From positions 1-49,440 of the IMG/VR virus record IMGVR_UViG_3300009446_000003: a stretch of DNA of 49,440 nucleotides. One strand, given 5' to 3'. Numbering within the stretch: position 1 is the first letter of the stretch; every line of letters starts with the position of its first letter. Below the pieces are notes generated by a model, which was not told the origin of the DNA, ran no database searches, and saw only the letters and a program-made list of their open reading frames with translations. This DNA is from a virus. Positions 1-49,327 of this stretch are shown here, piece after piece. A program made the translations under genes and the position numbers.

Positions 1-123
1 GTATCTTTTTAAACGGGTAAAGAGGGATGTTTAAACGGGTAAAGAGGGATGTTTAAACGGGTAAAGAGGGATGTTTAAACGGGTAAAGAGGGATGTTTAA
101 ACGGGTAAAGAGGGATGTTTAAA
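1..123. repeat. Terminal direct repeat: 1-123 is identical to 49318-49440 (circular or terminally redundant contig; unique length 49,317 bp)
   Basis: Direct comparison: GTATCTTTTTAAACGGG... at 1 and at 49318, with identical sequence through five iteron units plus AAA. Confidence 0.9.
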
Positions 124-142
124 CGGGTAAAGAGGGATGTTT
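11..142 (+). repeat. Six head-to-tail 22-bp iterons AAACGGGTAAAGAGGGATGTTT; putative plasmid-type replication origin
   Basis: Perfect 22-bp tandem copies at 11, 33, 55, 77, 99 and 121 with no spacers. On the circular map they lie immediately downstream of the Rep_3-like gene and are followed by an A/T-rich stretch (143-250). Confidence 0.85.
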
Positions 143-164
143 AAAAAAAATAAACAAACAAATG

Positions 165-966: not shown

Positions 967-994
967 ATGGCAAAGGCAATTGTGTCTTTGCCAT
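967..994 (+). terminator. Hairpin ATGGCAAAG-N10-CTTTGCCAT downstream of 252..953
   Basis: 9-bp perfect stem 14 nt after the stop codon. No U-tract follows on the + strand (an A-run follows), so terminator function is uncertain. Confidence 0.4.
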
Positions 995-1012
995 AATAAA
1001 AAAAACAATAAA

Positions 1013-2572
1013 ATGAACGAAAATATAACTTTCCAATCTGAATCACAAGAATTATCAGAATTTTACAAAGCATTTATTTTAGCACAAAGCGATTTTCCAG
1101 AGATAAAAAAAGATTTGTCTTATACAAAGACTTGGACAAATAAATGGGGAAAATCTTGCAGTGTTCAAATATTTTATTCTGGACTATCTTCAATCCTTAA
1201 ATCAATAACACCAATTTTAAATGTATACGACATGGGATTTACTCAACGTGTCGATGGTGCTTACCTTATAACAAGAGTTTTTCATTCGTTATCAAGTCAG
1301 TTTATTCAGATGCGATACCCATTGTATCAGCAGAACCCTAAGAGTATCCATGATACTGCAAGTGAGATAACATATATAAAAAGATATTGCTTGTGCATGA
1401 TGCTTGGAATTGAAGCAGCAAAAGATGATGACGGCATGGCTGCTTTAGATAGTGAGTCAAATGATTCTAATGATATTGTTGAAAAAATAAATATTTACGA
1501 TGTTAATTATTTCCACCACATGTATTTGAATGGTCATATGAAATGTTTTGATTTAGATGAAGAAAAGATTTTTAATTTGATTGATGGTGCATATTGCGCA
1601 AAACCAAGATTTACAGAAATTGATTTTGCAGAAATTGACAAAACTTTCTTTGTTAAGTTTAAAGACTCTGAAAATGGAAAGAACAAGCTTTGTAAGATGA
1701 CCAAACTTTCTTATCAGACTCTATTAAAGGCTTTTCATGAATTTGAAGAAACTGGTAAGGTTACATTGCATTTAGGATCAACGGACAGCGCGGAGCTAAC
1801 GGACAGCGCGGAGCTAACGGACAGCGCGGAGCTAACGGACAGCGCGGAGCTAACGGACAGCGCGGAGCCAATGGACAGCGCGGAGCCAATGGACAGCGCG
1901 GAAGTTGTAGTTGATGAAGTTTTGCATAATGATTTAAATACAGTAGAGGGACTTGAAAATGCAGCGATTGCTAAGACAGCAGCGAGTAAAGGGACCGATA
2001 AGAAGACAGTAGCTACCAAAGGAACGGCTAAGACAGCAGCTACCAAAGGAGCGGCTAAGATGGCAGCTAAGATGGCAGCTAAGACAGCAGCTAAGACAGC
2101 AGCTAAGACGGCAGCTAAGACAGCAGCTACCAAAGGAACGGCTACCAAGACAGCAGCTACCAAAGGAACGGCTAAGACGGCAAATACTAAAGGTTTGAAT
2201 GTGTCAAAGAGTGAGGAAGAAGCTATTAGGCATCTAAATCAAATTATGGATAAAAAAGCAGAAGGTTCTGGTGCAAAATTTATTCCATTTGATAAATACC
2301 CATTTAGCCAATATCTTAAATTGATTGAAGGGGGTAGAACTTCAGGTGTTCATTATCTAGCTACTAGAGAGCTGAAGAAATTGCTAAAAGATGCATTTAT
2401 TGAAGAAATGTATAAAAATTTGGAAATAGGCCATGCAAATGATGTTCCATATATAAGATATGAGGACTTGAAAGGGAAACCAACTATAAATCAAATTTCA
2501 GATGATAGTGAAGCTCATTTTAATGAATACGTAAATGCAGCAAATAAGCACAAAGAGAATGTAGACAAATAA
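1013..2572 (+). CDS. erf: ERF-family single-strand annealing recombinase with an internal acidic DSAELT repeat, a basic KTAATKG repeat and an extra C-terminal domain
   Basis: N-terminal region with ...ITYIKRYCLCMMLGIEAAKDDDG, resembling the ERF signature (tYarrY.l..lGi..eDDDg). ATG at 1013 preferred over TTG at 980 (A-rich leader directly upstream). Confidence 0.7.
   Translation: MNENITFQSESQELSEFYKAFILAQSDFPEIKKDLSYTKTWTNKWGKSCSVQIFYSGLSSILKSITPILNVYDMGFTQRVDGAYLITRVFHSLSSQFIQMRYPLYQQNPKSIHDTASEITYIKRYCLCMMLGIEAAKDDDGMAALDSESNDSNDIVEKINIYDVNYFHHMYLNGHMKCFDLDEEKIFNLIDGAYCAKPRFTEIDFAEIDKTFFVKFKDSENGKNKLCKMTKLSYQTLLKAFHEFEETGKVTLHLGSTDSAELTDSAELTDSAELTDSAELTDSAEPMDSAEPMDSAEVVVDEVLHNDLNTVEGLENAAIAKTAASKGTDKKTVATKGTAKTAATKGAAKMAAKMAAKTAAKTAAKTAAKTAATKGTATKTAATKGTAKTANTKGLNVSKSEEEAIRHLNQIMDKKAEGSGAKFIPFDKYPFSQYLKLIEGGRTSGVHYLATRELKKLLKDAFIEEMYKNLEIGHANDVPYIRYEDLKGKPTINQISDDSEAHFNEYVNAANKHKENVDK
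1781..1903 (+). repeat. Seven 18-bp in-frame tandem repeats (ACGGACAGCGCGGAGCTA; peptide TDSAEL/MDSAEP)
   Basis: Copies at 1781, 1799, 1817, 1835, 1853, 1871 and 1889. Confidence 0.85.
1966..2190 (+). repeat. K/T/A (KTAAKTAATKGTA) coding repeat inside the ERF gene, related to the repeats at 338-728 and 33385-33715
   Basis: GCTAAGACAGCAGCT / GCTACCAAAGGAACG units. Confidence 0.8.
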
Positions 2573-6965: not shown

Positions 6966-7583
6966 ATGGCTAAGAAAAATAATAAAAAGAAAACTATAAA
7001 GATAGCTATTAATAAAGACTTTGAAGTTCGATGGCGTGACATTAAATTCTTTCAACCTGAAAACTTTAAAATCAATGCCGATCATCTAGGCATTGCCAAT
7101 AGTATCAAAGATGTTGGTGTACATGATGTTCTTCATATTTGGATTGATGAAAATGGTGATATTTGGTCAATTGATGGTGAGCAAACTATAAAGGCATTAT
7201 TGATGCATTTTGATGAATATGATTTACCAGAGTATTTGCCAGCCGTTGAGCATAAAGCAAAAGACAAAAAAGAAGCTATTAAGGTGTTGACGAAGGTTTT
7301 TAATACAATTAGAAGCAAGGTAAATGAAACGGTTTACTTTGAATGGCTTGAAAATGAAGGTTTGAAGGCAGATAAGGCTGATAAAATGGACTTTTATTAT
7401 GATGTTGAGCCAAAGGAGCAAGGGGGACCAAAAGAGCCGTCAAACAAAGGAAATGGACCGCCATGCAATATTATAGAATTGCAGTTCACGGATGAAGATT
7501 CTATAAAAGTAAAAAAGGAGCTTAAAAATATAGGTCTAACAGCCGAAAATGTTCTTTATGCTGCTTTATTTCCAGATGAATAA
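6966..7583 (+). CDS. ParB/Srx-like N-terminal domain protein
   Basis: IKFFQPENFKI...ANSIKDVGVHDVLHIWIDENGDIWSIDGEQTIKAL matches the layout of a ParB N-terminal nuclease-like domain (i.v...g.y.iiDGhhR). Confidence 0.5.
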   Translation: MAKKNNKKKTIKIAINKDFEVRWRDIKFFQPENFKINADHLGIANSIKDVGVHDVLHIWIDENGDIWSIDGEQTIKALLMHFDEYDLPEYLPAVEHKAKDKKEAIKVLTKVFNTIRSKVNETVYFEWLENEGLKADKADKMDFYYDVEPKEQGGPKEPSNKGNGPPCNIIELQFTDEDSIKVKKELKNIGLTAENVLYAALFPDE

Positions 7584-12335: not shown

Positions 12336-12704
12336 TTATACAACTTTCTTGCCTTGCTCAATTTCATTTATGTAATCGCTAAATCTTTCAATCATTTCTG
12401 AATTATAAGCCAATTCGTAATCATCCAGTAAATAAGTAATTGATGCAATTAATTGTTGTTTCTGTGTCTGTGTGAATTTACTTGGTATAACGGTGGTCCA
12501 TTTTATAGGTATTTTAACCTGTTTGTTCCATGCGGTTATTAGTTCGGATTGATTTTGGTGAACAAAAGAGCATGGACATGGTGAATGTGGGCTATGTGAT
12601 ATACAATGCCAAGTTATAGTACCATCACTAGACTTTCCTTGAATATCTAACTTTATATCATCCGTACCACAAAAAGGGCAGTTTATCAAATCTAAATTTT
12701 CCAT
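12336..12704 (-). CDS. Lar-like (restriction alleviation family) zinc-ribbon N-terminal domain protein
   Basis: NCPFCGTDDIKL...WHCISHSPHSPCPC...ELITAWNKQ resembles the Lar_restr_allev pattern CPFCG...v.C..C...eAi.aWN.R. Confidence 0.5.
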   Translation of the reverse strand: MENLDLINCPFCGTDDIKLDIQGKSSDGTITWHCISHSPHSPCPCSFVHQNQSELITAWNKQVKIPIKWTTVIPSKFTQTQKQQLIASITYLLDDYELAYNSEMIERFSDYINEIEQGKKVV

Positions 12705-12708
12705 ATAT

Positions 12709-13086
12709 TTATCTTTTTACATTTAGGTTATTAAGATAGTTGTACTTAGTGGTTCCGTATATAGATTTTTCCTTGATAGGCTCAATTGAATTTTGCGTTG
12801 CTCCTATCCTTGTTTGACCTGAATTAATGATCTTTTCATTATGGTCAATTATTCTGATTAGATCAATTACCATTTCGTTAGTATAGCCTGTTATGTCCAG
12901 ATGCCATATCACAAAGTTGTTTATCTCAATGTTGATCTTCTTAATGAAAACCATCTGTTCATCTCTATGGAATGTCACATATGCGTAATCATTAGTAAAT
13001 TGCAAATGATTATCTGACTTTTTAACAAGCTCGTATTTACAGAATTTAACAAAGTGAAATATCAACACGTCAGTTATATCTTTCAT
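12709..13086 (-). CDS. Hypothetical protein (P-cassette driven)
   Basis: ATG at 13086 (MKDITDV...) chosen because the longer ORF to 13188 reads through the conserved promoter/leader cassette. Confidence 0.5.
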   Translation of the reverse strand: MKDITDVLIFHFVKFCKYELVKKSDNHLQFTNDYAYVTFHRDEQMVFIKKINIEINNFVIWHLDITGYTNEMVIDLIRIIDHNEKIINSGQTRIGATQNSIEPIKEKSIYGTTKYNYLNNLNVKR

Positions 13087-13190
13087 TATGATTGTTTTAA
13101 GTTGAATTTTACGCGGTTGATCCGCTAATGTATAACAAAGATAATTCAAACTATCCAAACAAACAAATATTTGTTTGTTTATTTTCAATA
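13087..13190 (-). promoter_or_regulatory. P cassette copy 1: 24-bp palindrome AAACAAACAAATATTTGTTTGTTT (13157-13180), TATCTTTG -7 box, GCGG..CCGC leader hairpin
   Basis: Member of the 11-copy family. The leader 3' part has diverged. Confidence 0.6.
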
Positions 13191-13210
13191 AATATTTAAT
13201 CCTATTTTAT

Positions 13211-13380
13211 TTAAAATAAATAAACAAATGTTTGTTTGTTTTAAAATTTGTTCGTATCTTGCTACAAAGTTCTGTCCACATTGAAAAATAATTTAAAATA
13301 AATAAACAAATGTTTGTTTGTTTTAAAAATAGTTCGTATCTTGCTACAAAATTCCGTCCACACTTACACCATAGGCAAAA
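13211..13380 (+). repeat. Two tandem R modules (~81-89 bp each), P-promoter paralogs facing away from the downstream P cassette
   Basis: AAATAAATAAACAAATGTTTGTTTGTTTTAAAA(T/A)T(T/A)GTTCGTATCTTGCTACAAA(G/A)TTC(T/C)GTCCACA, aligns with the P cassette through the TATCTT box. Confidence 0.7.
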
Positions 13381-13388
13381 AAATGGAT

Positions 13389-13448
13389 TATAATCAATTA
13401 AAAGCTTTACCCTCTATTATACAAGGGCAAAGCTTTTAATTGATTATA
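13389..13448 (-). terminator. Rho-independent terminator: 25-bp stem (1 mismatch) followed by a T7 run on the minus strand
   Basis: TATAATCAATTAAAAGCTTTACCCT / AGGGCAAAGCTTTTAATTGATTATA. The minus strand continues CCATTTTTTTGCC. Overlaps the stop codon of 13444..13800. Confidence 0.75.
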
Positions 13449-13800
13449 CAAGGCTAAAACCGTAGATAGTTTTGATTTCCTTGCCTTTTATTATCCTATT
13501 GAGTAACTGTCCCAAAGTGTTAGACGTTTCTTTGTGCTTCCAATCATAGAAGGATTGTAAACGCTGAAGGTGTTCAAGGGTAACCCCTTTTATTGCTTGA
13601 TCCCAATATCTATTGGCTAACATATCATCATCACTAACCCTTTGATTTTTCTCAAATCTAAGGCTGTATGTATATCTGATACTTAATTGCAATAACTCGT
13701 AAGACTTCTGAAAATCTTCTTTTCTTTCTGTTGCATACTTTGCAATTTCTAATTTAATTTCTTCTGTAAATTCTGGAAATTCTGGAAATTCTGAAAACAT
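13444..13800 (-). CDS. Hypothetical protein (P-cassette driven)
   Basis: 118-aa ORF starting directly after the conserved leader ...CTTTATACAG-ATG. Confidence 0.55.
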   Translation of the reverse strand: MFSEFPEFPEFTEEIKLEIAKYATERKEDFQKSYELLQLSIRYTYSLRFEKNQRVSDDDMLANRYWDQAIKGVTLEHLQRLQSFYDWKHKETSNTLGQLLNRIIKGKEIKTIYGFSLV

Positions 13801-13897
13801 CTGTATAAAGTTTTTAAAGGTTGTGCGGTTGATCCGCTAATGTATAACAAAGATAATTCAAATTATTTAAACAAACAAATATTTGTTTGTTTATTTT
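13801..13897 (-). promoter_or_regulatory. P cassette copy 2 (palindrome 13869-13892)
   Basis: Near-identical promoter/operator/leader sequence. Confidence 0.65.
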
Positions 13898-13901
13898 AAA
13901 A

Positions 13902-14102
13902 TTATCTTTGGATAGTATCAATACCAATATAGTTTGGGTTTTTCTCCAAAATCTTATCCCTAAACAAATTTATATATTTAGTATATTCATCTTTTGAAAA
14001 ATTGCTTATTACATAAAGATGGTATTTTGTTTTAGTCTTTTGTGTCTTTGCGTTACTTGCCTTTGTTGCTAACTGACTAATTGACATTTGATCTATTTTC
14101 AT
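13902..14102 (-). CDS. Hypothetical small protein
   Basis: 66-aa ORF, second gene of a two-gene unit. Confidence 0.45.
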   Translation of the reverse strand: MKIDQMSISQLATKASNAKTQKTKTKYHLYVISNFSKDEYTKYINLFRDKILEKNPNYIGIDTIQR

Positions 14103-14112
14103 TTATCCGATT

Positions 14113-14325
14113 TTAAAGGCTTATTAAAATTATTTCACTTGCTGTATATTGACAACCATCTATAGAATACAATAGTACTGAGTCGGTGTCTATGCTATCA
14201 ATATTAGACACTTTCAAGGGTATTTCCTCACCTATGTCATGTTTTCCATTTATAGACCTTACGCCTACTGTTTGACCTATTTCCAAATCTTTATCATGTG
14301 TTAATTTCCAAATAAAGGCATCCAT
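14113..14325 (-). CDS. Hypothetical small protein (P-cassette driven)
   Basis: 70-aa ORF starting directly after ...TTTATATCAAT-ATG. Confidence 0.5.
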   Translation of the reverse strand: MDAFIWKLTHDKDLEIGQTVGVRSINGKHDIGEEIPLKVSNIDSIDTDSVLLYSIDGCQYTASEIILISL

Positions 14326-14430
14326 ATTGATATAAAGGTTTAAAATGTTGTGCGACTAATCGCTAATGTATATCAAAGATAATTCAAATAAACCAAATAA
14401 ACAAATGTTTGTTTGTTTATTTGGTTTATT
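14326..14430 (-). promoter_or_regulatory. P cassette copy 3 (variant operator AAACCAAATAAACAAA-N6-TTTGTTTATTTGGTTT; GCGA..TCGC hairpin variant)
   Basis: 16-bp arms at 14390-14405 and 14412-14427. Confidence 0.6.
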
Positions 14431-14437
14431 TGGTTAA

Positions 14438-15169
14438 TTAATTAATTGATATTCTAGACTTGTTATAGCTTCCAGAAATTCCAGAATTTAAGTTAACATT
14501 ATTTCCAATATCAGAGCCTTTTTTGTAAGCATTTCTATTTGTGTTAATTCGGGCAGACGGTCCGTTTTTGGTTCTTACTCCTGTTTTTTTCAAGAATAAC
14601 TTATAATCTGATTCAACTATTTTCATTTTGTTAGTTTCTACTAGTCCATATTCTACAGAGCTATAATTGTCTTTATTCAACAATGACAGCCTATCATATA
14701 TCGACATACTAAAACCTTTGCAAAAGTCAGTACATTTACTTTTGCCATGCCTTGAATCATTTTTATATACTGCTGTTTTCTTGAATTTTGTTAATTCTGA
14801 AAACATAGTGTTATAAATAAAATTGTAAAAGTATTCAAACAATAAAATGTCTTTCTTTGATCCAAATATCACATATTCATTTTCTGTATTTATATAACCA
14901 CAACAGTTATATAGTAGGCGCAATTGAGGCACAAAGAAATTAGTCTTATATTTGAATTTATCAAATATCTTTACTTTTTTAAATTGGTTTTTGTCCCTAT
15001 CTTGTTTTTTCAAATCTGATTGACTTATATTGTATTTGTTCATCATTTTTTTAGCCTTAGATATGGCTGTCAATGTCTCGTTTTCGCTTGCACCTGAATC
15101 ATTAGACATTCTAATCAGAGAATTAATTGTATTCGTTATAGATTCTTTTTTTTCGTCTGAAATTTTCAT
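14438..15169 (-). CDS. DUF2786-like N-terminal domain protein
   Basis: TINSLIRMSNDSGASENETLTAISKAKKMMNKYNI resembles the DUF2786 pattern (i.kLL.la......EA..Al.kA..Lm.ky.i). Confidence 0.5.
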   Translation of the reverse strand: MKISDEKKESITNTINSLIRMSNDSGASENETLTAISKAKKMMNKYNISQSDLKKQDRDKNQFKKVKIFDKFKYKTNFFVPQLRLLYNCCGYINTENEYVIFGSKKDILLFEYFYNFIYNTMFSELTKFKKTAVYKNDSRHGKSKCTDFCKGFSMSIYDRLSLLNKDNYSSVEYGLVETNKMKIVESDYKLFLKKTGVRTKNGPSARINTNRNAYKKGSDIGNNVNLNSGISGSYNKSRISIN

Positions 15170-15265
15170 ATTAATATAAGTTTTAAAGGTTATGCGGTTG
15201 CTCCGCTAATGCATAACAAAGATAATTCAAATTATTTAAACAAACAAATATTTGTTTGTTTATTT
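15170..15265 (-). promoter_or_regulatory. P cassette copy 4 (palindrome 15238-15261)
   Basis: Near-identical promoter/operator/leader sequence. Confidence 0.65.
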
Positions 15266-15284
15266 TGCAAATAAAATTCATTGA

Positions 15285-15380
15285 AAAATAATTTAAAATA
15301 AATAAACAAATGTTTGTTTATTTTAAAATTTGTTCGTATCTTGCTACAAAATTCCGTCCACACTTAAACCACAGGCAAAA
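15285..15380 (+). repeat. R module (one full copy plus the junction remnant of a second)
   Basis: About 90% identical to 13292-13380; part of the left copy of the inverted repeat paired with 18176-18320. Confidence 0.7.
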
Positions 15381-15386
15381 TTTTTA

Positions 15387-15419
15387 ATATCCAGTAGTAC
15401 AATTTGCACTACTGGATAT
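15387..15419 (-). terminator. Hairpin terminator ATATCCAGTAGT-N9-ACTACTGGATAT
   Basis: 12-bp perfect stem directly after the stop of 15426..15845. The same hairpin occurs inverted at 18180-18212. Confidence 0.65.
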
Positions 15420-15425
15420 ATATTA

Positions 15426-15845
15426 TTAATCTTCAGATTTTGACGCTGTTAATATTTCGGTTTTTATTTCCATTTGCTTAAACGCTTCTTTTATATTTAT
15501 TCCGTTATTCTGAAAATCACCACCTGTACAGTCAAAAACAACCGTCATGCCTTCTTTTTTTGGCTGTTCTCCATATAGTCCAGTAAGATCATGCCAACCT
15601 TTGCATACAAAGGCTTTTTTGTATTTGGCGCGGTACTTCTTTCGTTTCCCTTTGCCTTTATATATTAAATACAATTCGCTTTTAAATCCATTAGATTTTA
15701 ATCTTTCTCGTCCATGTTCAAATAGCCATATGTGAGTACGACTTACAATCTCCATAGAATTTTGAACTACTAATGTAGCTTTTATTTTTTTTGGTAAAAC
15801 TATCTTGTATGTTGAGGGTATAAAGTAATCTGTTACGGCATTCAT
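15426..15845 (-). CDS. Hypothetical protein (P-cassette driven)
   Basis: 139-aa ORF starting directly after ...TTTATATCAAT-ATG. Confidence 0.55.
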   Translation of the reverse strand: MNAVTDYFIPSTYKIVLPKKIKATLVVQNSMEIVSRTHIWLFEHGRERLKSNGFKSELYLIYKGKGKRKKYRAKYKKAFVCKGWHDLTGLYGEQPKKEGMTVVFDCTGGDFQNNGINIKEAFKQMEIKTEILTASKSED

Positions 15846-15940
15846 ATTGATATAAAGTTTTAAAGGTTGTGCGACTAATCGCTAATGTATATCAAAGATA
15901 ATATAAATTTTATAAACAAACAAATATTTGTTTGTTTGTT
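15846..15940 (-). promoter_or_regulatory. P cassette copy 5 (palindrome 15914-15937; GCGA..TCGC hairpin variant)
   Basis: Near-identical promoter/operator/leader sequence. Confidence 0.65.
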
Positions 15941-15950
15941 TAAAAATAAA

Positions 15951-15984
15951 ATAGGGTAGCGATTTTTTAAAAAAGCTACCCTAT
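15951..15984 (-). terminator. Hairpin terminator ATAGGGTAGC-N14-GCTACCCTAT
   Basis: 10-bp perfect stem after the stop of 15989..16318, followed by TTTATTTTTA on the minus strand. Confidence 0.6.
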
Positions 15985-15988
15985 TACA

Positions 15989-16318
15989 TTATACAACAAC
16001 CTTTAAATTATCATATTTTTTTTGTTTGGCTATTGAATGCGGAACAGTTCGCCATGTAAACTCTAATTCTTCGCACATTTCAATCAAGGCTTTAAATGAT
16101 GTGGCTCGTATTTTCTGCCATTTAGTTTTATGTATTTCGTAAACAGTTGTTTTTATCCCTGTTTTCCTAATACATTCCTGAAAAAAAAGACTGGATTTTT
16201 CGTTTGATTTTGTTTCATTCAAACACTTTCCATTTGAATCACAAACAAAATATTTTTTAGATTCCGCGTTATGTTCGCGTGTATATCCTGCTAGATTTGA
16301 AAGTTTTAAATTTCTCAT
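15989..16318 (-). CDS. Hypothetical protein
   Basis: 109-aa ORF downstream of 16389..17072 with no P cassette of its own. Confidence 0.5.
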   Translation of the reverse strand: MRNLKLSNLAGYTREHNAESKKYFVCDSNGKCLNETKSNEKSSLFFQECIRKTGIKTTVYEIHKTKWQKIRATSFKALIEMCEELEFTWRTVPHSIAKQKKYDNLKVVV

Positions 16319-16348
16319 TAATTTTTAAGATTTTAAGATTTTAAGATT

Positions 16349-16375
16349 GACCATTCAGAAAAAATCTGAATGGTC
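16349..16375. other. Intercistronic hairpin GACCATTCAGA-N5-TCTGAATGGTC next to three TAAGATTT repeats (16326-16349)
   Basis: 11-bp perfect stem. The T-run lies on the plus strand only, so it may stop antisense transcription or attenuate the operon. Confidence 0.4.
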
Positions 16376-16388
16376 ATTTTTTTTTAAT

Positions 16389-17072
16389 TTACCCCCATAA
16401 TTTAATAGCGGTTTCTAAATCTTTTGTAAGATTGTTAACCTTCTTTTTTGCGTAAGTTAATGAATAACTATGCTCCCTTGCAAGTGTGCCGTCTTTATAT
16501 CCCTCATGAATTTCTTTTGCATCTTCTAATTGATATTCGTAAAACTCTATACAAGCAGGCATGGAAAGGTTCATGTCGTTTACTTTACTTTCCCAATATT
16601 GCGCACGACTTTTGTAAGCTTCTGACTTTCTTGATTCTGCCACCATTTTATCCATGCGGTTCCAGTTCCTTTTTATCAAAGCCCTGTGCTTTTTTTCCGA
16701 GTGGTGACCAACTAGGATTGGCTGACCAAATGGAATAATGTCATGCCCTTCTTTTGATGCTTCCCATGCTTCTGTGCTTCTTTTACTTGCATTTTCAGAA
16801 TATCCGTTTAACTTTTCGGCTTTTTTCTTTGCGTATTCCTGTGAGTTAAAACCGTCCTGTCTAACAATCGAATAATAAAAAGAATCACTATCCGTGTAAA
16901 TTAAATTAAAAACTATGCATTCATGCTCTTTGCCGTATCTAGTTGTTAATGTGATAATGTCACCTTTGACATGTTCGCTGTGACACTTAGCTAAAAAAAC
17001 ATTTGGACAATATTTTTTATAAGTATTTTTCAATTCTGTACTTTCCGTACTTGTGTTTTTTAATGGATTCAT
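16389..17072 (-). CDS. DUF3560-like protein
   Basis: ...EKLNGYSENASKRS...FGQPILVGHHSEKKHRALIKR... matches the GQPILVGHHSE(R/K)(R/K)HR core that I associate with DUF3560 proteins of plasmids and ICEs. Confidence 0.65.
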   Translation of the reverse strand: MNPLKNTSTESTELKNTYKKYCPNVFLAKCHSEHVKGDIITLTTRYGKEHECIVFNLIYTDSDSFYYSIVRQDGFNSQEYAKKKAEKLNGYSENASKRSTEAWEASKEGHDIIPFGQPILVGHHSEKKHRALIKRNWNRMDKMVAESRKSEAYKSRAQYWESKVNDMNLSMPACIEFYEYQLEDAKEIHEGYKDGTLAREHSYSLTYAKKKVNNLTKDLETAIKLWG

Positions 17073-17170
17073 ATTAAAAATTAAGTTTTAAAGGTTACGC
17101 GGTTGATCCGCTAATGTATAACAAAGATAATCTAAATTTTATAAACAAACAAATATTTGTTTGTTTATTT
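17073..17170 (-). promoter_or_regulatory. P cassette copy 6 (palindrome 17143-17166)
   Basis: Near-identical promoter/operator/leader sequence. Confidence 0.65.
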
Positions 17171-17174
17171 TTAT

Positions 17175-17831
17175 TTATTCATAGATGGATTGGCATGGCA
17201 ATGCTTCAAATTCTGCTTTGTTTGGACTCAAAACATATCTTTTTTTGTTTAGGCAATACTCCAAACCTAAATTTAATAAATACGCTGTATCTTCAAAGAA
17301 AACATTTCTACTATATGCATTTGTACAAAAATTAACAAAATCATCTTTTTGGTATTTGTTGTATGTTCGCATCATTTCCACATTATCAGGATAGAAGTTA
17401 TTAAACTCGTTAATGTAATCATATGTGTTTGAAATGTATTCTTTTAGCTCCTTAGAAAATTCTTTTAGAGTTGATTTGCATGGCAATGCATCAAAATCAC
17501 ATTGCCATATTTCCAATAAATAACGCTCGTTAATATCACAAAAATTTATATTTGAATCAATTAGATTTGCAATATTTTTAAAATCAATATTTCTTATATA
17601 TGCTTTTGTGCAAAAATCAACAAAGTCATCTTTTTGAATACCTACTAAAATACTAGCTCGACAATCATAATTATCTATGTAATCATAAACGTCTTTTATG
17701 TATTGATCTAAAGCATTATCATAAGTAAAATTACCCTCTGTATGTATTGTTACGCTTCTTTGTGTGTCACTTGTAATGTTAAGCGTGTATTGAGTCAAAC
17801 CTATTTGATTTGTATTTGATATTAAAGTCAT
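17175..17831 (-). CDS. Hypothetical protein with an internal two-fold repeat (DDFV(D/N)FCT(K/N)AY...FEALPC(K/Q)S)
   Basis: 218-aa ORF starting directly after ...CTTATATCAAT-ATG. Two ~95-aa homologous halves are visible. Confidence 0.55.
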   Translation of the reverse strand: MTLISNTNQIGLTQYTLNITSDTQRSVTIHTEGNFTYDNALDQYIKDVYDYIDNYDCRASILVGIQKDDFVDFCTKAYIRNIDFKNIANLIDSNINFCDINERYLLEIWQCDFDALPCKSTLKEFSKELKEYISNTYDYINEFNNFYPDNVEMMRTYNKYQKDDFVNFCTNAYSRNVFFEDTAYLLNLGLEYCLNKKRYVLSPNKAEFEALPCQSIYE

Positions 17832-17951
17832 ATTGATATAAGGTTTTAAAGGTTACGCGGTTGATCCGCTAATGTATAACAAAGATAATCTAGATTATCT
17901 TTGTTATACATTAGCGATTAGTCGCACAACATTTTAAACCTTTATATCAAT
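17832..17951. promoter_or_regulatory. P cassettes 7 and 8 fused back-to-back (divergent), containing a 50-bp perfect palindrome 17867-17916 and no AAAC operator
   Basis: Left leader (GCGG..CCGC variant) drives 17831<-; right leader (GCGA..TCGC variant) drives ->17952. The two TATCTTTG boxes are 8 bp apart. Confidence 0.65.
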
Positions 17952-18173
17952 ATGGATTTATCACAACAAATACAGGAACTAGAAAAAAATTGGGACAATG
18001 AAAATTGCAAAAAACTATACAGAGATTTAACCGACTTTTCAATAATTCCAAATGTAGAATTGAAAAAATTGAAATTAGTTTTTAATAGAAATCAATTTAT
18101 AAATAGTTACGGATTGGAGCAAATACAAAGAAAGTACAGTACTGAAGTTTTTAATAAAGTGTATCCAGTATAG
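17952..18173 (+). CDS. Hypothetical small protein (P-cassette driven)
   Basis: 73-aa ORF directly after ...TTTATATCAAT-ATG. Confidence 0.5.
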   Translation: MDLSQQIQELEKNWDNENCKKLYRDLTDFSIIPNVELKKLKLVFNRNQFINSYGLEQIQRKYSTEVFNKVYPV

Positions 18174-18179
18174 TAATAT

Positions 18180-18212
18180 ATATCCAGTAGTGCAATTTGT
18201 ACTACTGGATAT
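18180..18212 (+). terminator. Hairpin terminator ATATCCAGTAGT-N9-ACTACTGGATAT
   Basis: 12-bp perfect stem 7 nt after the stop codon; inverted copy of 15387-15419. Confidence 0.65.
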
Positions 18213-18215
18213 TAA

Positions 18216-18385
18216 AAATTTTGCCTATGGTGTAAGTGTTGACAGAATTTTGTAGCAAGATACGGACTATTTTTAAGATAAACAAACATTTGTTTATTTA
18301 TTTTAAATTATTTTTCAATGTGGACGGAATTTTGTAGCAAGATACGAACAAATTTTAAAACAAACAAACATTTGTTTATTTATTT
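18216..18385 (-). repeat. Two tandem R modules (inverted relative to 13211-13380)
   Basis: Cores at 18236-18277 and 18318-18360: (G/A)TGT(T/G)GAC(A/G)GAATTTTGTAGCAAGATACG(G/A)AC... Confidence 0.7.
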
Positions 18386-18414
18386 TAAAGGAAACTTGAA
18401 TTAAATATTTTTTG

Positions 18415-18513
18415 CAAAACAAACAAACAAATATTTGTTTGTTTGTAAAATTTGAATTATCTTTGATATACATTAGCGATTAGTCGCACAACCTTTAAAA
18501 AATTTATATCAAT
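18415..18513 (+). promoter_or_regulatory. P cassette copy 9: palindrome 18421-18444, TTTG(18434-18437)-N20-TATCTTTG(18458-18465), GCGA..TCGC leader hairpin
   Basis: Exact Bacteroidota -33/-7 geometry, with the -33 box inside the right palindrome arm. Confidence 0.7.
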
Positions 18514-18885
18514 ATGGTAGGTAGTGAATATGTTAAGAGAAATGATAAATCTATAACTTGCAAAGTTTTAGATACAATTAAAATTGGATTCGATGACGGA
18601 TTTAAATGTAAGATAAAAGATATTGAATACAAAACCGAAAAGATACAGAATCATCTAAAACGCGATTTTAACGATGTTTGGCAGCCTTTAATTTTCGTAA
18701 AGATACCATGCACTTGTATTGGATACGCCAACGAATACAGTATCTTTTTAAATGAATCAATTATAAAAATATACCAAAAAGGATTAACGGAAATTGCATA
18801 TAAATTATATTGTACCGACCCCATGCAAAAAGAAACAATATTAACGATTGAAGATTTTATTAAAACAATGAGATTGTTTAAGTAA
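18514..18885 (+). CDS. Hypothetical protein (P-cassette driven)
   Basis: 123-aa ORF directly after ...TTTATATCAAT-ATG. Confidence 0.55.
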   Translation: MVGSEYVKRNDKSITCKVLDTIKIGFDDGFKCKIKDIEYKTEKIQNHLKRDFNDVWQPLIFVKIPCTCIGYANEYSIFLNESIIKIYQKGLTEIAYKLYCTDPMQKETILTIEDFIKTMRLFK

Positions 18886-18888: not shown

Positions 18889-18937
18889 AAACTACCAATA
18901 TCTGTAATAAAAAATTCAGTTATTGGTAGTTTTTTTT
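18889..18937 (+). terminator. Rho-independent terminator (AAACTACCAATA...TATTGGTAGTTT followed by a T-run)
   Basis: 12-bp outer stem plus a 3-bp inner stem; T-run through 18937. Confidence 0.8.
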
Positions 18938-18939
18938 AT

Positions 18940-19095
18940 ATTTGCAATGTGGACAGAACTTTGTAGCAAGATACGAACTATTTTTAAAATAAACAAACAA
19001 ATAAACATTTATTTTAAATTATTTTTCAATGTGGACGGAATTTTGTAGCAAGATACGAACTATTTTTAATATAAACAAACAAATAAACATTTATT
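18940..19095 (-). repeat. Two tandem R modules upstream of 19116..19676
   Basis: Cores at 18947-18990 and 19029-19070: ATGTGGAC(A/G)GAA(C/T)TTTGTAGCAAGATACGAACTATTTTTAA. Confidence 0.7.
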
Positions 19096-19115
19096 TTTGA
19101 AATTAATCAAAACTT

Positions 19116-19676
19116 ATGAGTAACAAAAAATCAAATCTAAAGTCTTTAAAAAGGCTTGGGCTTATTAGACTATTCAAAAATACTAATTGGAAGCATAACG
19201 GCAAAGGGACCGCGTGTTATAAAGGATTTGGATACGGTCAGTACGAGCTAAAAGATAGGGCTAAGATAATGGGAATACCAGAAATTGATTTAGTTACAAA
19301 AAATCACTATGAGCAATGGGAAGGTGTAGAGGTCAAAATGATAAAGGGCGCATTTCATACATCTATAGAAATATCTAAAGAATTGATTGATGATAATAGC
19401 TATAACCCACCAAGTAAAATTTTAAGAATAAAAAACCCTTCAAATAATCCGTTTATTGCATCGGTTTGTTTTCCAGATTTGGAATTGATATTCACAAATA
19501 TTGTTACACAAAATCAAGTTAGTAAAGATTTGATATTTTCGCAACTAGACATAACAACAGGTAAATTTGATCCATATGTCAAGTTTAATCCTAGAGTGTT
19601 TTTGTATATTGACTATGTTAGTGATGTCGCTAAAAACGATCTTTTTTCAAATAAAAAACGATACAATTTAAAATAA
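19116..19676 (+). CDS. Hypothetical protein
   Basis: 186-aa ORF, last gene of the accessory island. Confidence 0.55.
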   Translation: MSNKKSNLKSLKRLGLIRLFKNTNWKHNGKGTACYKGFGYGQYELKDRAKIMGIPEIDLVTKNHYEQWEGVEVKMIKGAFHTSIEISKELIDDNSYNPPSKILRIKNPSNNPFIASVCFPDLELIFTNIVTQNQVSKDLIFSQLDITTGKFDPYVKFNPRVFLYIDYVSDVAKNDLFSNKKRYNLK

Positions 19677-19736: not shown

Positions 19737-19819
19737 AGTATGTGGTATTTTTATTGTATTTTTGTAGTGAATACAAACAAACAAATAATTAAACATTTAT
19801 TTAAAATTTTAAACTAGAA

Positions 19820-46811: not shown

Positions 46812-46867
46812 TTGCATTTATACCTTAAATGCAAAACCGTTAACATTCTATTGTTGACGGTTTTTTT
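46812..46867 (+). terminator. Two adjacent hairpins (46812-46834; 46835-46862), the second followed by a T7 run
   Basis: TTGCATTTA-N5-TAAATGCAA, then AACCGTTAACA-N6-TGTTGACGGTT plus TTTTTTT. They lie about 200 nt after the nearest upstream stop codon. Confidence 0.6.
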
Positions 46868-46880
46868 ATTTCCAAATTGT

Positions 46881-46979
46881 AAAATAAACAAACAAATATT
46901 TGTTTGTTTGCAAAATTTAGATTATCTTTGTTATACATTAGCGGAACAACCGCATAACCTTTAAAAACTTTATATCAAT
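46881..46979 (+). promoter_or_regulatory. P cassette copy 10: 24-bp AAAC palindrome, TTTG(46899-46902)-N20-TATCTTTG(46923-46930), leader hairpin GCGG-AACAA-CCGC (46941-46953)
   Basis: Exact -33/-7 geometry; ATG at 46980. Confidence 0.7.
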
Positions 46980-47399: not shown

Positions 47400-47497
47400 C
47401 AAAAACACAAACAAACAAATATTTGTTTGTTTGTAAAATTTAGATTATCTTTGTTGTACATCAGCGATTAGTCGCACAAAATTTTAAACCTTATATA
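47400..47497 (+). promoter_or_regulatory. P cassette copy 11: palindrome 47408-47431, TTTG(47421-47424)-N20-TATCTTTG(47445-47452), hairpin GCGA-TTAG-TCGC (47463-47474); drives the rep operon
   Basis: Same family; followed by 47498..47902 and rep. Confidence 0.7.
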
Positions 47498-47902: not shown

Positions 47903-49234
47903 ATGGCAAAAACACAACAGGAACAAGATAGATTAATTGCAATTTCAAATGACTTGGTACTATCTTGCTACAGCTTTAATTTATGGGAATTTCGCTTGTT
48001 CTTCCTTGCAATACAGGATGTAAAAAGGAGCGACAAAGTATTTAGACCCTTTAAGTTTTATGCAAAAATCGTCAAGCAGTTCTTTAAGAATAAATCAAAC
48101 GGAGCTTATAAGAAAATAGTAGATGCATGTAGCTCATTACAAAAAAAGCAACTAGTAGTAAATTATAATGATTCCGATGGAGATGAAAGGCAAAAAACGA
48201 TAAATATATTTTCTTTAACAGATAAGCCTAGAAATGAAAATTCAACAAACAAATATTTGTTTTTAAAATTCAATGATGATGTCATGCCTTATCTTCTTAA
48301 CTTGATAGCGAATTATACATTGTTTGACATAAGAAATATTTTAAATTTGAGGTGTTCTGCTTCATTTCGATTGTATCAAATTTTCAAAATGAAAGAATGT
48401 AATTTCAAAGATGAAATCACATTTGATCTACCTGTTGATTTTCTCAGAAAAATGATGATTGTTGATTCAGAAGGTGAACCAGTTGATAAATATTCTAGGT
48501 ATAGTGATTTTAAGAATTTTGCACTTACCAATCCATATAAGCAGATAAATCAGAATACCGATGTTAAATTTAAGTTTGTGGAACTAAAAAAAGGCAAGAC
48601 AATTGATAAGATTAGATTTACAATATACAAAAATATTCCTTTGAAATTAACTGTCAATCAATCAATCAAAGAATCAAAGAGCTATCAATTACTTTTAAAA
48701 AATGGTGTTACTGAATCCATGTGCTTAGATATTTGCAAGAATCAAGAAGATAAGTTTATAATTTTTACTTTAAATAAATGCATTGAGGATCATATGCGCA
48801 AATCAAAAAATAATCTAGCTGGTTACATAGTTAGCTCTATAAAAAACGGTTTGTATATAGTTGAATACAAAAATAGATTGTCTAAAATTGAAGCTTCAAA
48901 AGTTAAGAAATTGAAGCTTCAGGAATTGATGGTGCAAGATTCCGAAATACAAAAATATTTAGCTTCATTTAAAAATCTATTAAAAAGCACTATATCTATT
49001 ACTAAAGAAAATTTATCCAATCAAGAAATAGAGAATTACCTATCTACTTGTAAGAGAAAATATCCTTTACAGACTTGCAAAACCGATCCTGAAATTATGC
49101 AAAGTATATTTTTTGACTTTGTAGTACAGGAAAATATTAAAGAATTTTCAACATTTGAAATTTGGATGAAGCATACGCATAACCTAGAGGTTTTAAAATG
49201 TAACGACACTAATTTGTATTTGTATAAAAAATAA
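47903..49234 (+). CDS. Plasmid-type replication initiator (Rep_3/RepB-like)
   Basis: N-terminus ...IAISNDLVLSCYSFNLWEFRLFFLAIQDV... matches the Rep_3 pattern (sN.Li.a.y.Lsl.E.rl.l.li). The iteron array starts 94 nt downstream. Confidence 0.7.
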   Translation: MAKTQQEQDRLIAISNDLVLSCYSFNLWEFRLFFLAIQDVKRSDKVFRPFKFYAKIVKQFFKNKSNGAYKKIVDACSSLQKKQLVVNYNDSDGDERQKTINIFSLTDKPRNENSTNKYLFLKFNDDVMPYLLNLIANYTLFDIRNILNLRCSASFRLYQIFKMKECNFKDEITFDLPVDFLRKMMIVDSEGEPVDKYSRYSDFKNFALTNPYKQINQNTDVKFKFVELKKGKTIDKIRFTIYKNIPLKLTVNQSIKESKSYQLLLKNGVTESMCLDICKNQEDKFIIFTLNKCIEDHMRKSKNNLAGYIVSSIKNGLYIVEYKNRLSKIEASKVKKLKLQELMVQDSEIQKYLASFKNLLKSTISITKENLSNQEIENYLSTCKRKYPLQTCKTDPEIMQSIFFDFVVQENIKEFSTFEIWMKHTHNLEVLKCNDTNLYLYKK

Positions 49235-49327
49235 TCATCATTTTCATTATTGTTGATTATTACATCATTATTACAAATATTATTACGTGCCTATAATAAA
49301 ATGATAATCAAATGATTGTATCTTTTT

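Follow-up and report, generated by a model that had tools for sequence, protein, structure and literature searches.

Repeated cassettes upstream of unrelated genes

Why would a single phage place one and the same sequence, from promoter to start codon, in front of genes that share no similarity with each other? The window, by which we mean the whole stretch of DNA analysed (49,440 nucleotides), is a phage-like genome of 49 kb whose expression signals are of the Bacteroidota type, and in it one ~95-bp module, made up of promoter, leader, and start site, recurs before 11 unrelated, putatively early transcription units, the replication operon included (Table 1). These type-1 modules are ~90% identical, and in their alignment conservation sets in abruptly at about −55 and stops as abruptly at the ATG. 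An earlier note on this DNA had described such a repeated cassette, and its 11 copies, their coordinates, the ATG at each 3' end, and the unrelated proteins downstream were all borne out. The layout that it assigned to them is not fixed: eight copies have a perfect palindrome, but c14382 carries a variant, extended palindrome, and the head-to-head pair at 17832-17951 has neither the palindrome nor the −33 TTTG. On balance, we think that the cassettes are standardised early-expression modules, a Bacteroidota-type counterpart of the promoter-early stem-loop (PeSL) cassettes of T4-type phages.

A related 82-bp repeat that the note had missed is present as seven type-2 units, which have the same palindrome and spacing as type-1 but carry a TATCTTGC box that matches the Flavobacterium "SM5" promoter class. 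The prophage lifestyle assumed in the note found no support, as no integrase was found in the genome, which has a Rep3 initiator with iterons and a weak ParB-like match.

Table 1. Cassettes, sibling repeats, and replication and recombination features of the window
Feature	Position	Strand	Palindrome	−7 box	Genes driven and other features
Type-1 c13144	13087..13184	-	13157-13180	TATCTTTG, 13143 (13136-13143)	12709-13086, then Lar-like gene 12336-12704; hairpin GCGG-ATCAA-CCGC; divergent leader
Type-1 c13856	13801..13896	-	13869-13892	TATCTTTG, 13855	13444-13800; begins 9 nt past stop codon of 13902-14102
Type-1 c14382	14326..14432	-	variant, 2 substitutions; lengthened into 21-bp-stem inverted repeat, 14385-14432	TATCTTTG, 14381	14113-14325 and 13902-14102; hairpin GCGA-TTAG-TCGC
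Type-1 c15225	15170..15265	-	15238-15261	TATCTTTG, 15224	14438-15169 (DUF2786/DUF7168)
Type-1 c15901	15846..15941	-	15914-15937	TATCTTTG, 15900	15426-15845; preceded by GC-containing terminator hairpin 15950-15985
Type-1 c17130	17073..17170	-	17143-17166	TATCTTTG, 17129	16389-17072 (DUF3560) and, beyond hairpin 16348-16376, 15989-16318
Truncated type-1 c17888	17832..17891	-	none	TATCTTTG, 17887	17175-17831; −7 box, hairpin, and leader only; abuts c17895
Truncated type-1 c17895	17892..17951	+	none	TATCTTTG, 17896	17952-18173; head-to-head with c17888, −7 boxes 8 bp apart; 17868-17915 a 48-bp perfect palindrome
Type-1 c18457	18417..18513	+	18421-18444	TATCTTTG, 18458	18514-18885
Type-1 c46922	46882..46979	+	46886-46909	TATCTTTG, 46923	46980-47393; preceded by terminator hairpin at ~46834-46868
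Type-1 c47445	47405..47497	+	47409-47432	TATCTTTG, 47446	47498-47902 and Rep3 initiator 47903-49234
Type-2, two tandem 82-bp units	13197..13385	+	variant AAATAAACAAATGTTTGTTTGTTT in each	TTTG-N20-TATCTTGC	divergent from c13144; aimed at hairpin 13386-13449, which ends gene 13444-13800
Type-2, one unit	15279..15385	+			divergent from c15225; aimed at hairpin 15387-15419
Type-2, two tandem units	18215..18394	-			divergent from c18457; aimed at hairpin 18180-18212
Type-2, two tandem units	18936..19100	-	rearranged		aimed at hairpin 18889-18932; upstream of and divergent from gene 19116-19676
Rep3-family replication initiator	47903..49234	+			Rep3_N and Rep3_C; second gene of c47445 unit
22-bp iterons	49325-49440, continuing at 8-145				after Rep3 initiator gene
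Erf-family single-strand annealing protein	980..2572	+			phage's own recombinase

A predicted consensus promoter in each full cassette

The cassette promoter fits TTTG-N20-TAHHTTTG, the primary-sigma consensus of the putative Bacteroidota host. Matches to TTTG-N17-21-TAnnTTTG were found at 16 sites in the window, compared with 4.4 ± 2.0 expected, and nine of the 16 are cassettes, every one of them with a 20-bp spacer; the note had read such a promoter in each copy, the pair at 17832-17951 included. The refined −7 element of F. johnsoniae is T-12 A-11 H H T-8 T-7 T-6 G-5, with which the cassette box TATCTTTG agrees (PMC6847099). Judged from sequence, the promoter reading is supported, and each cassette would be a primary-sigma promoter of the host, in which 20 bp separate TTTG (−36 to −33) from TATCTTTG (−12 to −5), joined to a standard leader. 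Transcription would start at a purine five nucleotides past the box, which is present at the predicted +1 in all 11 copies and gives a fixed predicted 5'UTR of 40-45 nt.

A conserved palindrome over the −33 element

The AT-rich 24-bp palindrome spans −49 to −26, with its centre at −37.5, and had 13 matches (≤3 mismatches) against 0.00 expected (100 shuffles). Mean pairwise identity was 0.98 in the left arm, 0.98 in the right arm, 0.71 in the spacer, and 0.34 in the flank, with the promoter-distal arm conserved as well as the −7 box. Conservation of the distal arm at 98%, compared with 71% for the promoter spacer, suggests that the palindrome itself is functional. We tentatively regard it as a separate functional element, with an operator as its likeliest role, at which a dimeric protein would switch the early set off jointly. 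This is the role that the note had predicted, and the conservation of the distal arm speaks for it; against it, Pfam and PHROGs searches of ~40 proteins recognised no repressor or other DNA-binding protein, and one Cro-sized candidate gave a confident AF2 model with no DNA-binding match. The claim of a single regulon did not survive, since two of the 11 promoters have no palindrome site and the set is not uniform. A simple operator reading is further complicated by the left arm, which is identical to a motif found, always in the same orientation, ahead of middle and late genes too.

The palindrome might instead be purely structural, as in PeSLs, with a read-through hairpin that attenuates or terminates transcription and insulates each cassette without a trans-acting repressor. 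Four cassettes begin directly (5-15 nt) after an upstream stop codon with no separate terminator, the 21-bp stem of c14382 (RNA fold −23.6 kcal/mol, z −8.6) would be useful to a hairpin rather than to a protein site, and the stem-loops of PeSLs, which lie over or ahead of the −35 element, have demonstrated termination. We find this unlikely, however, because the canonical hairpin is weak (−9.6 kcal/mol, two G-C pairs, no U-tract after the stem), the palindrome is present even behind strong separate terminators (c15901 and c46922) and in copies divergent from type-2 units, where no transcription enters it, and complementarity would suffice for a hairpin, leaving the near-perfect sequence identity unneeded. 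Besides its putative operator role, the palindrome probably doubles as a weak attenuator hairpin against read-through from the upstream gene.

Another explanation dispenses with a dedicated regulator: the right arm would be no more than the −33 element, and the left arm, being A-rich, would act as a UP-like element boosting RNA polymerase binding. Symmetry would be a by-product, both arms being built from (AAAC)n/(GTTT)n, a motif that is ubiquitous in this phage. The proximal subsites of UP elements at sigma-70 promoters act around −49 to −38, the zone of the left arm, and AAACAAACAAATATTT, a motif with 17 further uses across the genome, was on hand as a building block. In F. johnsoniae promoters, moreover, AT-rich motifs lie upstream and a clear −33 element is lacking (PMC6847099). 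The arms of eight copies are nevertheless perfectly complementary (12/12), which exceeds what an A-rich tract needs, the variant palindrome is found both ways round with respect to a promoter (c14382 compared with the type-2 units), as fits a symmetric site, and the two cassettes without a palindrome retain everything else, all of which makes this explanation doubtful.

The leader and the start region

A small GC hairpin of 4 bp, located around +7 to +19, would open the leader; it probably stabilises the RNA or is recognised by an RNA-binding factor. Two alleles were detected, GCGA-TTAG-TCGC in five copies and GCGG-AnCAA-CCGC in six; one stem pair is A-T in the first and G-C in the second, a compensated change, and their loops differ in length. 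This covariation is a single event with two alleles. Fold prediction left the rest of the leader essentially unstructured. No Shine-Dalgarno sequence is present in the start region, which is rich in A, with A-3 in 10 of 11 copies and A-6 and A-14 in nine of 11 each, positions reported as positive determinants of translation (PMC6847099). The 3' end of the leader may serve as an unstructured A-rich translation-initiation region that reaches the ATG. As the note had held, the leader is conserved up to the ATG, but the leaders of c13144, c13856, and c47445 are divergent.

Could the leader, rather than the palindrome, be the main coordinator, with a phage RNA-binding protein or endoribonuclease that silences early mRNAs post-transcriptionally by reading the shared 5' hairpin and the leader? 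RegA and RegB of T4 act in this way. Here the whole UTR is conserved to the ATG in 11/11 copies, the two without a palindrome included, a compensatory change maintains the stem while the loop varies, and middle and late genes have a different leader type. No RNA-binding protein or nuclease was recognised, though, the hairpin is just 4 bp long, and selection for efficient translation or gene conversion explains the conservation equally. We consider a coordinating leader improbable, and because it gives no account of palindrome conservation, it would be an addition to the operator reading and not a full alternative.

Cargo and spread of the module

All-vs-all BLASTP found the downstream proteins to be mutually unrelated (best E-value 0.085), in agreement with the note. 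The nearest relatives of the DUF3560 cargo are ~50% identical and belong to Pasteurella and Porphyromonas phages. The cassette said to head the rep operon does so, as 47498-47902 abuts the gene bearing Rep3_N and Rep3_C. The description of the units as insulated and monocistronic was correct in part, but four of the 11 are bicistronic (c13144, c14382, c17130, and c47445). With the module in front of both unrelated accessory genes and the replication operon, these genes would fire together on host RNA polymerase right after infection.

The note's view that the module was propagated on its own, and not by gene duplication, is upheld by the sharp boundaries, the unrelated proteins, and variants that are mosaic among copies; in a four-gamete test, all four haplotypes were present at two site pairs. 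Because the ~95-bp modules are so alike and the phage encodes Erf, which could act on such repeats, they may also be recombination substrates for the gain, loss, and reshuffling of accessory genes. Cassette conservation could partly stem from recent gene conversion between copies and not from selection. Multiple near-identical copies in both orientations might also suggest a small non-autonomous, promoter-carrying mobile element (MITE/Correia-like) transposed before genes, but this is highly improbable given that each copy stops exactly at the start codon and supplies a translation-initiation region, that the cassette ends are not mutual inverted repeats and no target-site duplications are visible, that no transposase was found, and that the genome, metagenome, and viral collections searched yielded no further copy and no cassette-bearing relative.

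Comparison with known systems

The phenomenon is real and striking, but it is close to the PeSL promoter/stem-loop cassettes known in T4-type phages, and the suggestion of no described counterpart finds no support: comparable systems are PeSLs (PMC2839356, PMC4122927), C1 operators of P1 (PMC8546580), and start-associated sequences of Cluster K mycobacteriophages (SAS/ESAS; PMC3203893). The C1 repressor of P1 has 22 operators dispersed over the genome (PMC8546580). Mycobacteriophage L5 and its stoperators, as cited in PMC3203893, are another dispersed single-repressor regulon. As described there, these systems likewise have one short sequence at many phage promoters, permitting coordinated repression, and P1 is also a plasmid-type replicon. 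Their sites, on the same accounts, are 13-17 bp, asymmetric, and served by known repressors, whereas the 24-bp perfect palindrome here is one part of a conserved module that is far longer, and no gene for a repressor was detected.

SAS/ESAS resemble the cassettes in that a conserved sequence lies directly 5' of the start codon in non-structural genes that are not related to each other, with an inverted repeat just upstream in about half of the cases, and in having a putative function for which a host- or phage-encoded binding factor is suspected. The SAS, however, is no promoter but an extended ribosome-binding site of 13 bp, the inverted repeats of ESAS are imperfect and their spacers vary, and both are conserved over many related phages, whereas no relative was found here in the collections searched.

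Host-takeover early clusters and morons of phages such as SPO1, T5, T4, and the lambdoid phages contain numerous small genes to which no function is assigned. Each has a strong host-type promoter to itself, and often a terminator as well, and they are the first to be expressed after infection. Their promoters share consensus hexamers only, in contrast to ~95-bp near-identical modules with a full leader.

PeSLs, from the T4-type myoviruses RB49, phi1, PST/T4, and nt-1/KVP40 (PMC2839356, PMC4122927), consist of an AT-rich region, a consensus host promoter, a stem-loop, a ribosome-binding site, and a start codon upstream of ORFans, and have been shown experimentally to be strong promoters and terminators that mediate shuffling (PMC2839356). 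The cassettes, known from sequence alone, differ in belonging to an unrelated 49-kb replicon with Rep3 and iterons, in having a Bacteroidota-type −33/−7 promoter instead of −35/−10 and no Shine-Dalgarno sequence, in being far more uniform, with the entire 5'UTR conserved, in carrying two stem-loops (the AT-rich palindrome over −33 and the GC leader hairpin) where PeSLs have one GC-rich terminator, and in being accompanied by a sibling unit with an alternative −7 box. Both are repeated intergenic modules immediately before unrelated small genes or ORFans, with the same order of upstream stop codon, AT-rich region, primary-sigma promoter, stem-loop, translation signals, and start codon, and with a stem-loop that overlaps or flanks the promoter. 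They also share a similar density of ~1 per 3-4.5 kb, grouping in an accessory-gene region with a few copies beside replication genes, and a proposed double service in expression and recombination.

A repeated, predicted expression cassette ahead of unrelated genes

The core observation of the earlier note, that near-identical cassettes stand in front of many small genes of this virus, is correct and far beyond chance. A search with the -7 box and its downstream context returned exactly 11 copies, all inside the intervals claimed for them (see table), and the 24-bp palindrome AAACAAACAAATATTTGTTTGTTT matched 13 times at ≤3 mismatches, against none in 100 dinucleotide-preserving shuffles. The pattern TTTG-N17-21-TAnnTTTG occurred at 16 sites in the window, compared with 4.4 ± 2.0 expected; nine of the 16 were cassettes, each with a spacer of 20 bp. 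Alignment of the copies and their flanks revealed a conserved block that spans from ~55 bp 5' of the box to exactly the ATG, at which all 11 cassettes end, with similarity dropping off on either side. The downstream proteins are indeed unrelated (lowest pairwise E-value 0.085, in a 16-protein database), and most of these cargo proteins had no Pfam or PHROG match. One copy also heads the rep operon, as had been proposed: 47405–47497 is followed by gene 47498–47902 and the abutting 47903–49234, which carries Rep3_N and Rep3_C.

The layout proved less fixed than first described. The palindrome is perfect in eight copies, and in the copy named c14382 it carries two substitutions and the inverted repeat is lengthened to a 21-bp stem (14385–14432). 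The two head-to-head copies at 17832–17951 are cut just 5' of their -7 boxes and have no palindrome; together they build a 48-bp perfect palindrome (17868–17915) with the boxes 8 bp apart. This structure has the appearance of having arisen when inverted cassettes recombined, and RNA polymerase would be able to occupy only one of its two predicted promoters at a time.

The description of the units as insulated and monocistronic holds only in part: four units are bicistronic, and four cassettes begin 5–15 nt past the upstream stop codon with no terminator of their own between. In one bicistronic unit, genes 16389–17072 and 15989–16318 are separated, at 16323–16376, by a hairpin with a 12-bp stem together with three repeats of 8 bp (TTTTAAGA). 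Gene 15989–16318 has no cassette and no recognisable promoter, so its expression presumably depends on read-through of this hairpin. We also detected, on the plus strand at 13869–13910, the palindrome of the copy c13856 followed on the strand opposite to that cassette by TTTG-N17-TATCTTTG, a consensus-type predicted promoter that would read antisense into gene 13902–14102.

Positions of repeated elements and bicistronic units in the window
Feature	Position	Strand
Cassette -7 box starts (n=7)	13143, 13855, 14381, 15224, 15900, 17129, 17887	-
Cassette -7 box starts (n=4)	17896, 18458, 46923, 47446	+
Type-2, two units	13197–13385	+
Type-2, one unit	15279–15385	+
Type-2, two units	18215–18394	-
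Type-2, two units	18936–19100	-
Bicistronic unit	12709–13086 + 12336–12704	
Bicistronic unit	14113–14325 + 13902–14102	
Bicistronic unit	16389–17072 + 15989–16318	
Bicistronic unit	47498–47902 + rep	
AAACAAACAAATATTT outside repeats	152, 214, 6566, 7582, 7602, 9193, 9213, 10515, 11591, 19775, 21118, 32379, 32395, 37439, 41173, 42524, 48243	+

Predicted promoter, leader and translation start

Bacteroidota sigma-A promoters consist of a -33 TTTG about 19–20 bp 5' of a -7 element, TAnnTTTG or TAHHTTTG, at -12 to -5. The -7 box TATCTTTG was present in all 11 cassettes and the full arrangement TTTG-N20-TATCTTTG, with TTTG at -36 to -33, in nine, the -33 TTTG being missing from the head-to-head pair. 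The box fits TAHHTTTG, a consensus drawn from F. johnsoniae, in which the -7 element is numbered T-12, A-11, T-8, T-7, T-6 and G-5 (PMC6847099). An AT-rich region (AAAATAAACAAACAAAT) lies 5' of the promoter, the predicted +1 is a purine in every copy, and the leader is 40–45 nt long. It opens with a 4-bp GC hairpin at ~+7 to +19, while folding predicts the remainder to be unstructured. The hairpin comes in two alleles, GCGA-TTAG-TCGC (n=5) and GCGG-AnCAA-CCGC (n=6), between which a stem pair is altered on both sides and the loop varies in sequence and length. Because the pair is compensated while the loop varies, this single change, statistically thin as it is, suggests a structural role in the RNA and speaks against a double-stranded protein site.

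No Shine-Dalgarno (SD) sequence was found at the 3' end of the 11 copies. The bases 5' of the ATG are A-rich, with A-3 in 10/11, A-6 in 9/11 and an A-run at ~-13 to -16, and A-rich positions here are positive determinants of SD-less translation in Bacteroidota (PMC6847099). We describe the cassette as a putative plug-in unit, complete with what host RNA polymerase and ribosomes would need for expression, and judge from its sequence that it very probably is a promoter and leader module. Genetic tools for Bacteroidota are scarce, and the predicted combination of consensus -33/-7 promoter, 43-nt leader and SD-less start context would make the cassette a compact part, already optimised in nature, for these bacteria.

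Other kinds of promoter or repeat were also considered. A scan for sigma-70 hexamer promoters gave no enrichment (34 sites versus 48 expected), which agrees with a non-Proteobacterial host. N4-type phages carry a giant virion RNA polymerase and use promoters formed by a DNA hairpin upstream of +1; we rejected this type, as the largest ORF here encodes 912 aa, the GC hairpin lies 3' of the predicted +1, and the promoter follows the host consensus. Promoter-bearing MITEs of the Correia-like kind are bounded by terminal inverted repeats, leave a target-site duplication, and turn up away from genes or in further genomes. They were dismissed too, since the cassette ends are not mutual inverted repeats, all copies end at an ATG, and none was found elsewhere in the collections searched.

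A sibling repeat with a predicted SM5-class box

The earlier note overlooked seven 82-bp siblings of the cassettes, here called type-2 units. Their upstream half is that of the cassettes, with a palindrome variant (AAATAAACAAATGTTTGTTTGTTT) and the same TTTG-N20 register, whereas the sequence 3' of the box is unlike theirs (TACAAAATTCCGTCCACA...). The box itself is TATCTTGC in 7/7 units with a TTTG 20 bp 5', and all fit TTTG-N20-TAHHTTGY. The SM5 promoter class of Flavobacterium psychrophilum, which is separate from the sigma-A class and validated by mutagenesis in that species, has TAnnTTGY at -12 to -5, with G at -6 and a pyrimidine at -5 (PMC9723704). The type-2 units carry this box, and are predicted on that basis to belong to the SM5 class. 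With TAnnTTTG and TAnnTTGY boxes on otherwise similar scaffolds, the two repeats may serve as a natural experiment on how sigma factors of Flavobacteriia select their promoters.

Every type-2 locus is placed 5' of a cassette or of gene 19116 and is oriented away from it, towards the terminator hairpin that closes the preceding convergent gene. Should the units be active, their RNAs would be ~75 nt long. Rfam returned no family above its gathering thresholds; at E ≤ 1 there were generic hairpins, all of them below threshold. Antisense pairing of the transcript to phage start regions was rejected, the best duplex reaching -19.8 kcal/mol against -17.6 ± 2.2 for shuffled sequences, and we also considered that the RNA could mimic a CRISPR repeat or guide (compare 10.64898/2026.06.01.729453).

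The palindrome as a candidate operator

Over the nine palindrome-bearing copies, mean pairwise identity was 0.98 in both the promoter-distal (left) arm and the right arm, 0.71 in the remaining 13 bp of the promoter spacer, 0.60 in the 8 bp directly outside the palindrome, and 0.34 in the outside flank from -75 to -50. Conservation of the left arm equals that of the -7 box, and to our knowledge its position has no role in sigma recognition; the palindrome is therefore, judged by its conservation, a functional element in its own right. It overlaps the core promoter, reaching from -49 to -26 around a centre at -37.5, with the -33 TTTG inside it in 9/11 copies. The earlier note had proposed an operator, bound by a dimeric protein that would occlude the -33 element. 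This is plausible, and we hold it tentatively, at somewhat less than even chances. The symmetry is present at the level of sequence, beyond mere complementarity; further palindrome copies cluster 61–63 and 82 bp away, in type-2 units; and the variant palindrome is found in both orientations relative to a promoter. On the other hand, no helix-turn-helix (HTH), RHH or repressor family was matched among the ~40 proteins scanned against Pfam and/or PHROGs.

Placement right behind stop codons, together with the stem extension in c14382, would suit an attenuator hairpin against read-through, as in the promoter-early stem-loop cassettes (PeSLs) of T4-type phages. We rate it below the operator, at low odds: the palindrome generally folds at -9.6 kcal/mol (-23.6 kcal/mol in one copy), with two G-C pairs and no U-tract, and it also occurs where nothing transcribes into it. 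Slightly less likely again is the suggestion that it represents a UP-like A-rich element joined to the -33 element.

If the palindrome is an operator, its cognate repressor is possibly among the ORFan proteins. The Cro-sized product of gene 13902–14102 (g13902) gave a confident single-sequence model of a three-helix protein (pLDDT 84), which had no PDB match at E ≤ 0.001. For the product of gene 15989–16318 (g15989) the model was unusable (pLDDT 44) and the sequence had no PDB match. Neither emerged as a repressor candidate. Separately, the proteins encoded at 252–953, 980–2572 and 33102–33734 contain long K/A/T-rich tandem repeats (e.g. TAATKTATK) coded by 27-nt DNA repeats; the repeat within the second of these, an Erf protein, had a weak histone H1-like HC2 match, and all three proteins may be non-specific binders of AT-rich DNA. 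The palindrome, with the pair at 17832–17951 as a control, would offer a clean system in which to find a new DNA-binding regulator.

An oriented half-motif ahead of middle and late genes

A 16-mer made of the left arm plus four bases, AAACAAACAAATATTT, occurred 37 times at ≤1 mismatch, where 0.07 were expected. Seventeen copies fall outside the repeats. Every one of these is on the plus strand, which is the coding strand, and 15 lie in short intergenic spacers, 13 of them directly 5' of middle or late genes. The exceptions are the copy at 152, in the region between the iterons and gene 252, and that at 48243, inside rep. At the two places with a recognisable -7 box (one ending at 195, the other at 19757–19764), the motif falls 3' of the predicted +1. 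We suggest that, ahead of middle and late genes, AAACAAACAAATATTT probably acts in the RNA, as an element of the leader or of translation, so that early genes would use one leader type and middle and late genes another; (AAAC/AAAT)n runs precede many other starts. In sequence, the palindrome of the early promoters amounts to the putative late-leader motif duplicated in inverted orientation.

It is conceivable, though a long shot, that the cassettes, type-2 units and oriented half-motif belong to a single system, specific to this phage, for control and gene capture. One factor would read AAACAAACAAATATTT, with the inverted pair over -33 shutting early promoters and lone oriented copies in middle and late leaders promoting expression. 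Early shut-off would then be coupled to late onset, a coupling that p4 performs in phage phi29. The SM5-class promoters of the type-2 units would be served by a different sigma factor and yield short convergent non-coding RNAs, and Erf recombination between the ~95-bp modules would shuttle accessory genes as mini-circles. Were all this true, the region would serve a Bacteroidota phage-plasmid as a platform for accessory genes, much like an integron.

Possible cassette exchange and genome context

Variant sites are mosaic among the copies, and two site pairs show all four haplotypes, which indicates that the copies have exchanged sequence or that mutations have recurred. The genome also has a gene for an annealing protein of the Erf family. 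Among the cargo, a DUF3560 protein has its best relatives (~50% identical) in Pasteurella and Porphyromonas phages, and another unit has a Lar-like restriction-alleviation domain at E = 1.3e-4, short of Pfam's curated cut-off, both of which fit mobile cargo. In an independent Logan assembly made from the same run (SRR5754723), contigs break off at the cassettes, as expected for real repeats; one contig of 1,207 nt, for example, contains only genes 16389–17072 and 15989–16318, the segment between copies c17130 and c15901 in the window. The mosaicism, Erf protein, cargo and assembly breaks are together consistent with turnover mediated by recombination.

The window ends overlap by 123 bp within an iteron array (1–123 = 49318–49440), implying a circular genome or assembly of ~49.3 kb; its GC content is 30.8%. 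Beyond a Rep3-family initiator gene (47903–49234) lie 22-bp iterons (TTTAAACGGGTAAAGAGGGATG), at least six in number, at 49325–49440 and 8–145. The other recognisable genes encode a TerL homologue, Erf, a helicase and a topoisomerase-like protein, with a weak ParB-like match at 6966–7583; no integrase was seen and no tRNAs were found in the genome. The Rep3 gene, iterons and ParB-like match make a phage-plasmid lifestyle possible, and since no integrase was seen it may be that of a plasmid-prophage. We infer a Bacteroidota host, since the predicted promoters are of that type, SD sequences are lacking and GC content is low.

Several other features of the genome were observed. The ORF at 45754–46638, just 5' of early cassettes, matches di-haem cytochrome c peroxidase (CCP_MauG, E 1.4e-7) and weakly cytochrome c, an unusual phage cargo. 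Tandem repeats of 108 nt (~6 copies, 95% identical) occur at 38571–39406 within the late 882-aa ORF 38036–40684, and 69-nt repeats (four copies) at 44796–45208 inside a late ORF; both likely encode repeated domains of tail- or fibre-like proteins.

Exact and degenerate promoter-plus-hairpin and palindrome patterns were run against IMG/VR, JGI metagenomes and GTDB genomes and found no true cassette there, and three metagenome matches to a 22-mer were rejected as chance, having no cassette context. The type-2 16-mer matched once in each of six IMG/VR loci; the one context inspected (locus L018) was unrelated coding sequence. Relatives reached through proteins were too distant for comparison: the best TerL relative, 54% identical, is on a 1.8-kb contig, and the gene maps of three longer TerL relatives at ~45% (contigs L008, L011 and L012) show tight operons with no per-gene intergenic spacers. 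INPHARED held no similar DNA except one 208-bp stretch. None of 10 late proteins matched PHROGs and no Rep homologue was found at E ≤ 1e-10 among 5.8 billion proteins, so by these comparisons the lineage is an orphan.

Comparison with known systems

The earlier note knew of no described counterpart, but several systems are comparable. In phage P1, 22 dispersed C1 operators form one regulon (PMC8546580); the stoperators of mycobacteriophage L5 are another precedent for dispersed operators, and Cluster K mycobacteriophages have start-associated repeats with upstream inverted repeats (PMC3203893). The closest counterparts are the PeSLs, which number ~50 per T4-type phage genome, mostly 5' of ORFans. 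In each of them AT-rich sequence and a consensus sigma-70 early promoter are joined to a stem-loop and to the translation signals, an SD sequence with its start codon (PMC2839356; PMC4122927). Their stem-loop varies in position, including over the -35 element or just 3' of the -10 element, and experiments have shown PeSLs to be strong promoters and terminators that mediate modular shuffling and mini-circles (PMC2839356; PMC4122927).

Like PeSLs, the cassettes are a repeated intergenic motif directly 5' of unrelated, predicted early genes, mostly of no known function, with a match to the consensus promoter of the host's primary sigma factor and an AT-rich region upstream. In place of an SD sequence they have an A-rich SD-less start, its functional equivalent in Bacteroidota (PMC6847099). 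PeSLs lie in hyperplastic regions of T4-like myovirus genomes, whereas the cassettes are in a 49-kb genome with Rep3 and iterons and no T4-like genes; promoter type and stem-loops also differ, and termination and recombination, demonstrated for PeSLs, are candidate activities of the cassettes. The cassettes thus appear PeSL-like in every readable feature bar the SD sequence, yet fall outside the PeSL family, because the phage is unrelated, the promoter type and stem-loops differ, and there is no SD sequence. In the limited literature searched, no Bacteroidota phage was described as having cassettes of this kind, which is not proof of novelty. A demonstrated palindrome-binding factor, a link to the late-leader motif or active shuffling would raise their significance.

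We therefore regard the cassettes as putative PeSL-like modules rebuilt with Bacteroidota signals. They appear set apart in that the invariant module is unusually long, the palindrome is conserved, and a sibling unit has an alternative -7 box. If confirmed, this would suggest that the PeSL strategy, in which a standard promoter and leader is reused before interchangeable accessory genes, arose independently and is a general solution to accessory-gene turnover in phages, despite wholly different transcription and translation signals.
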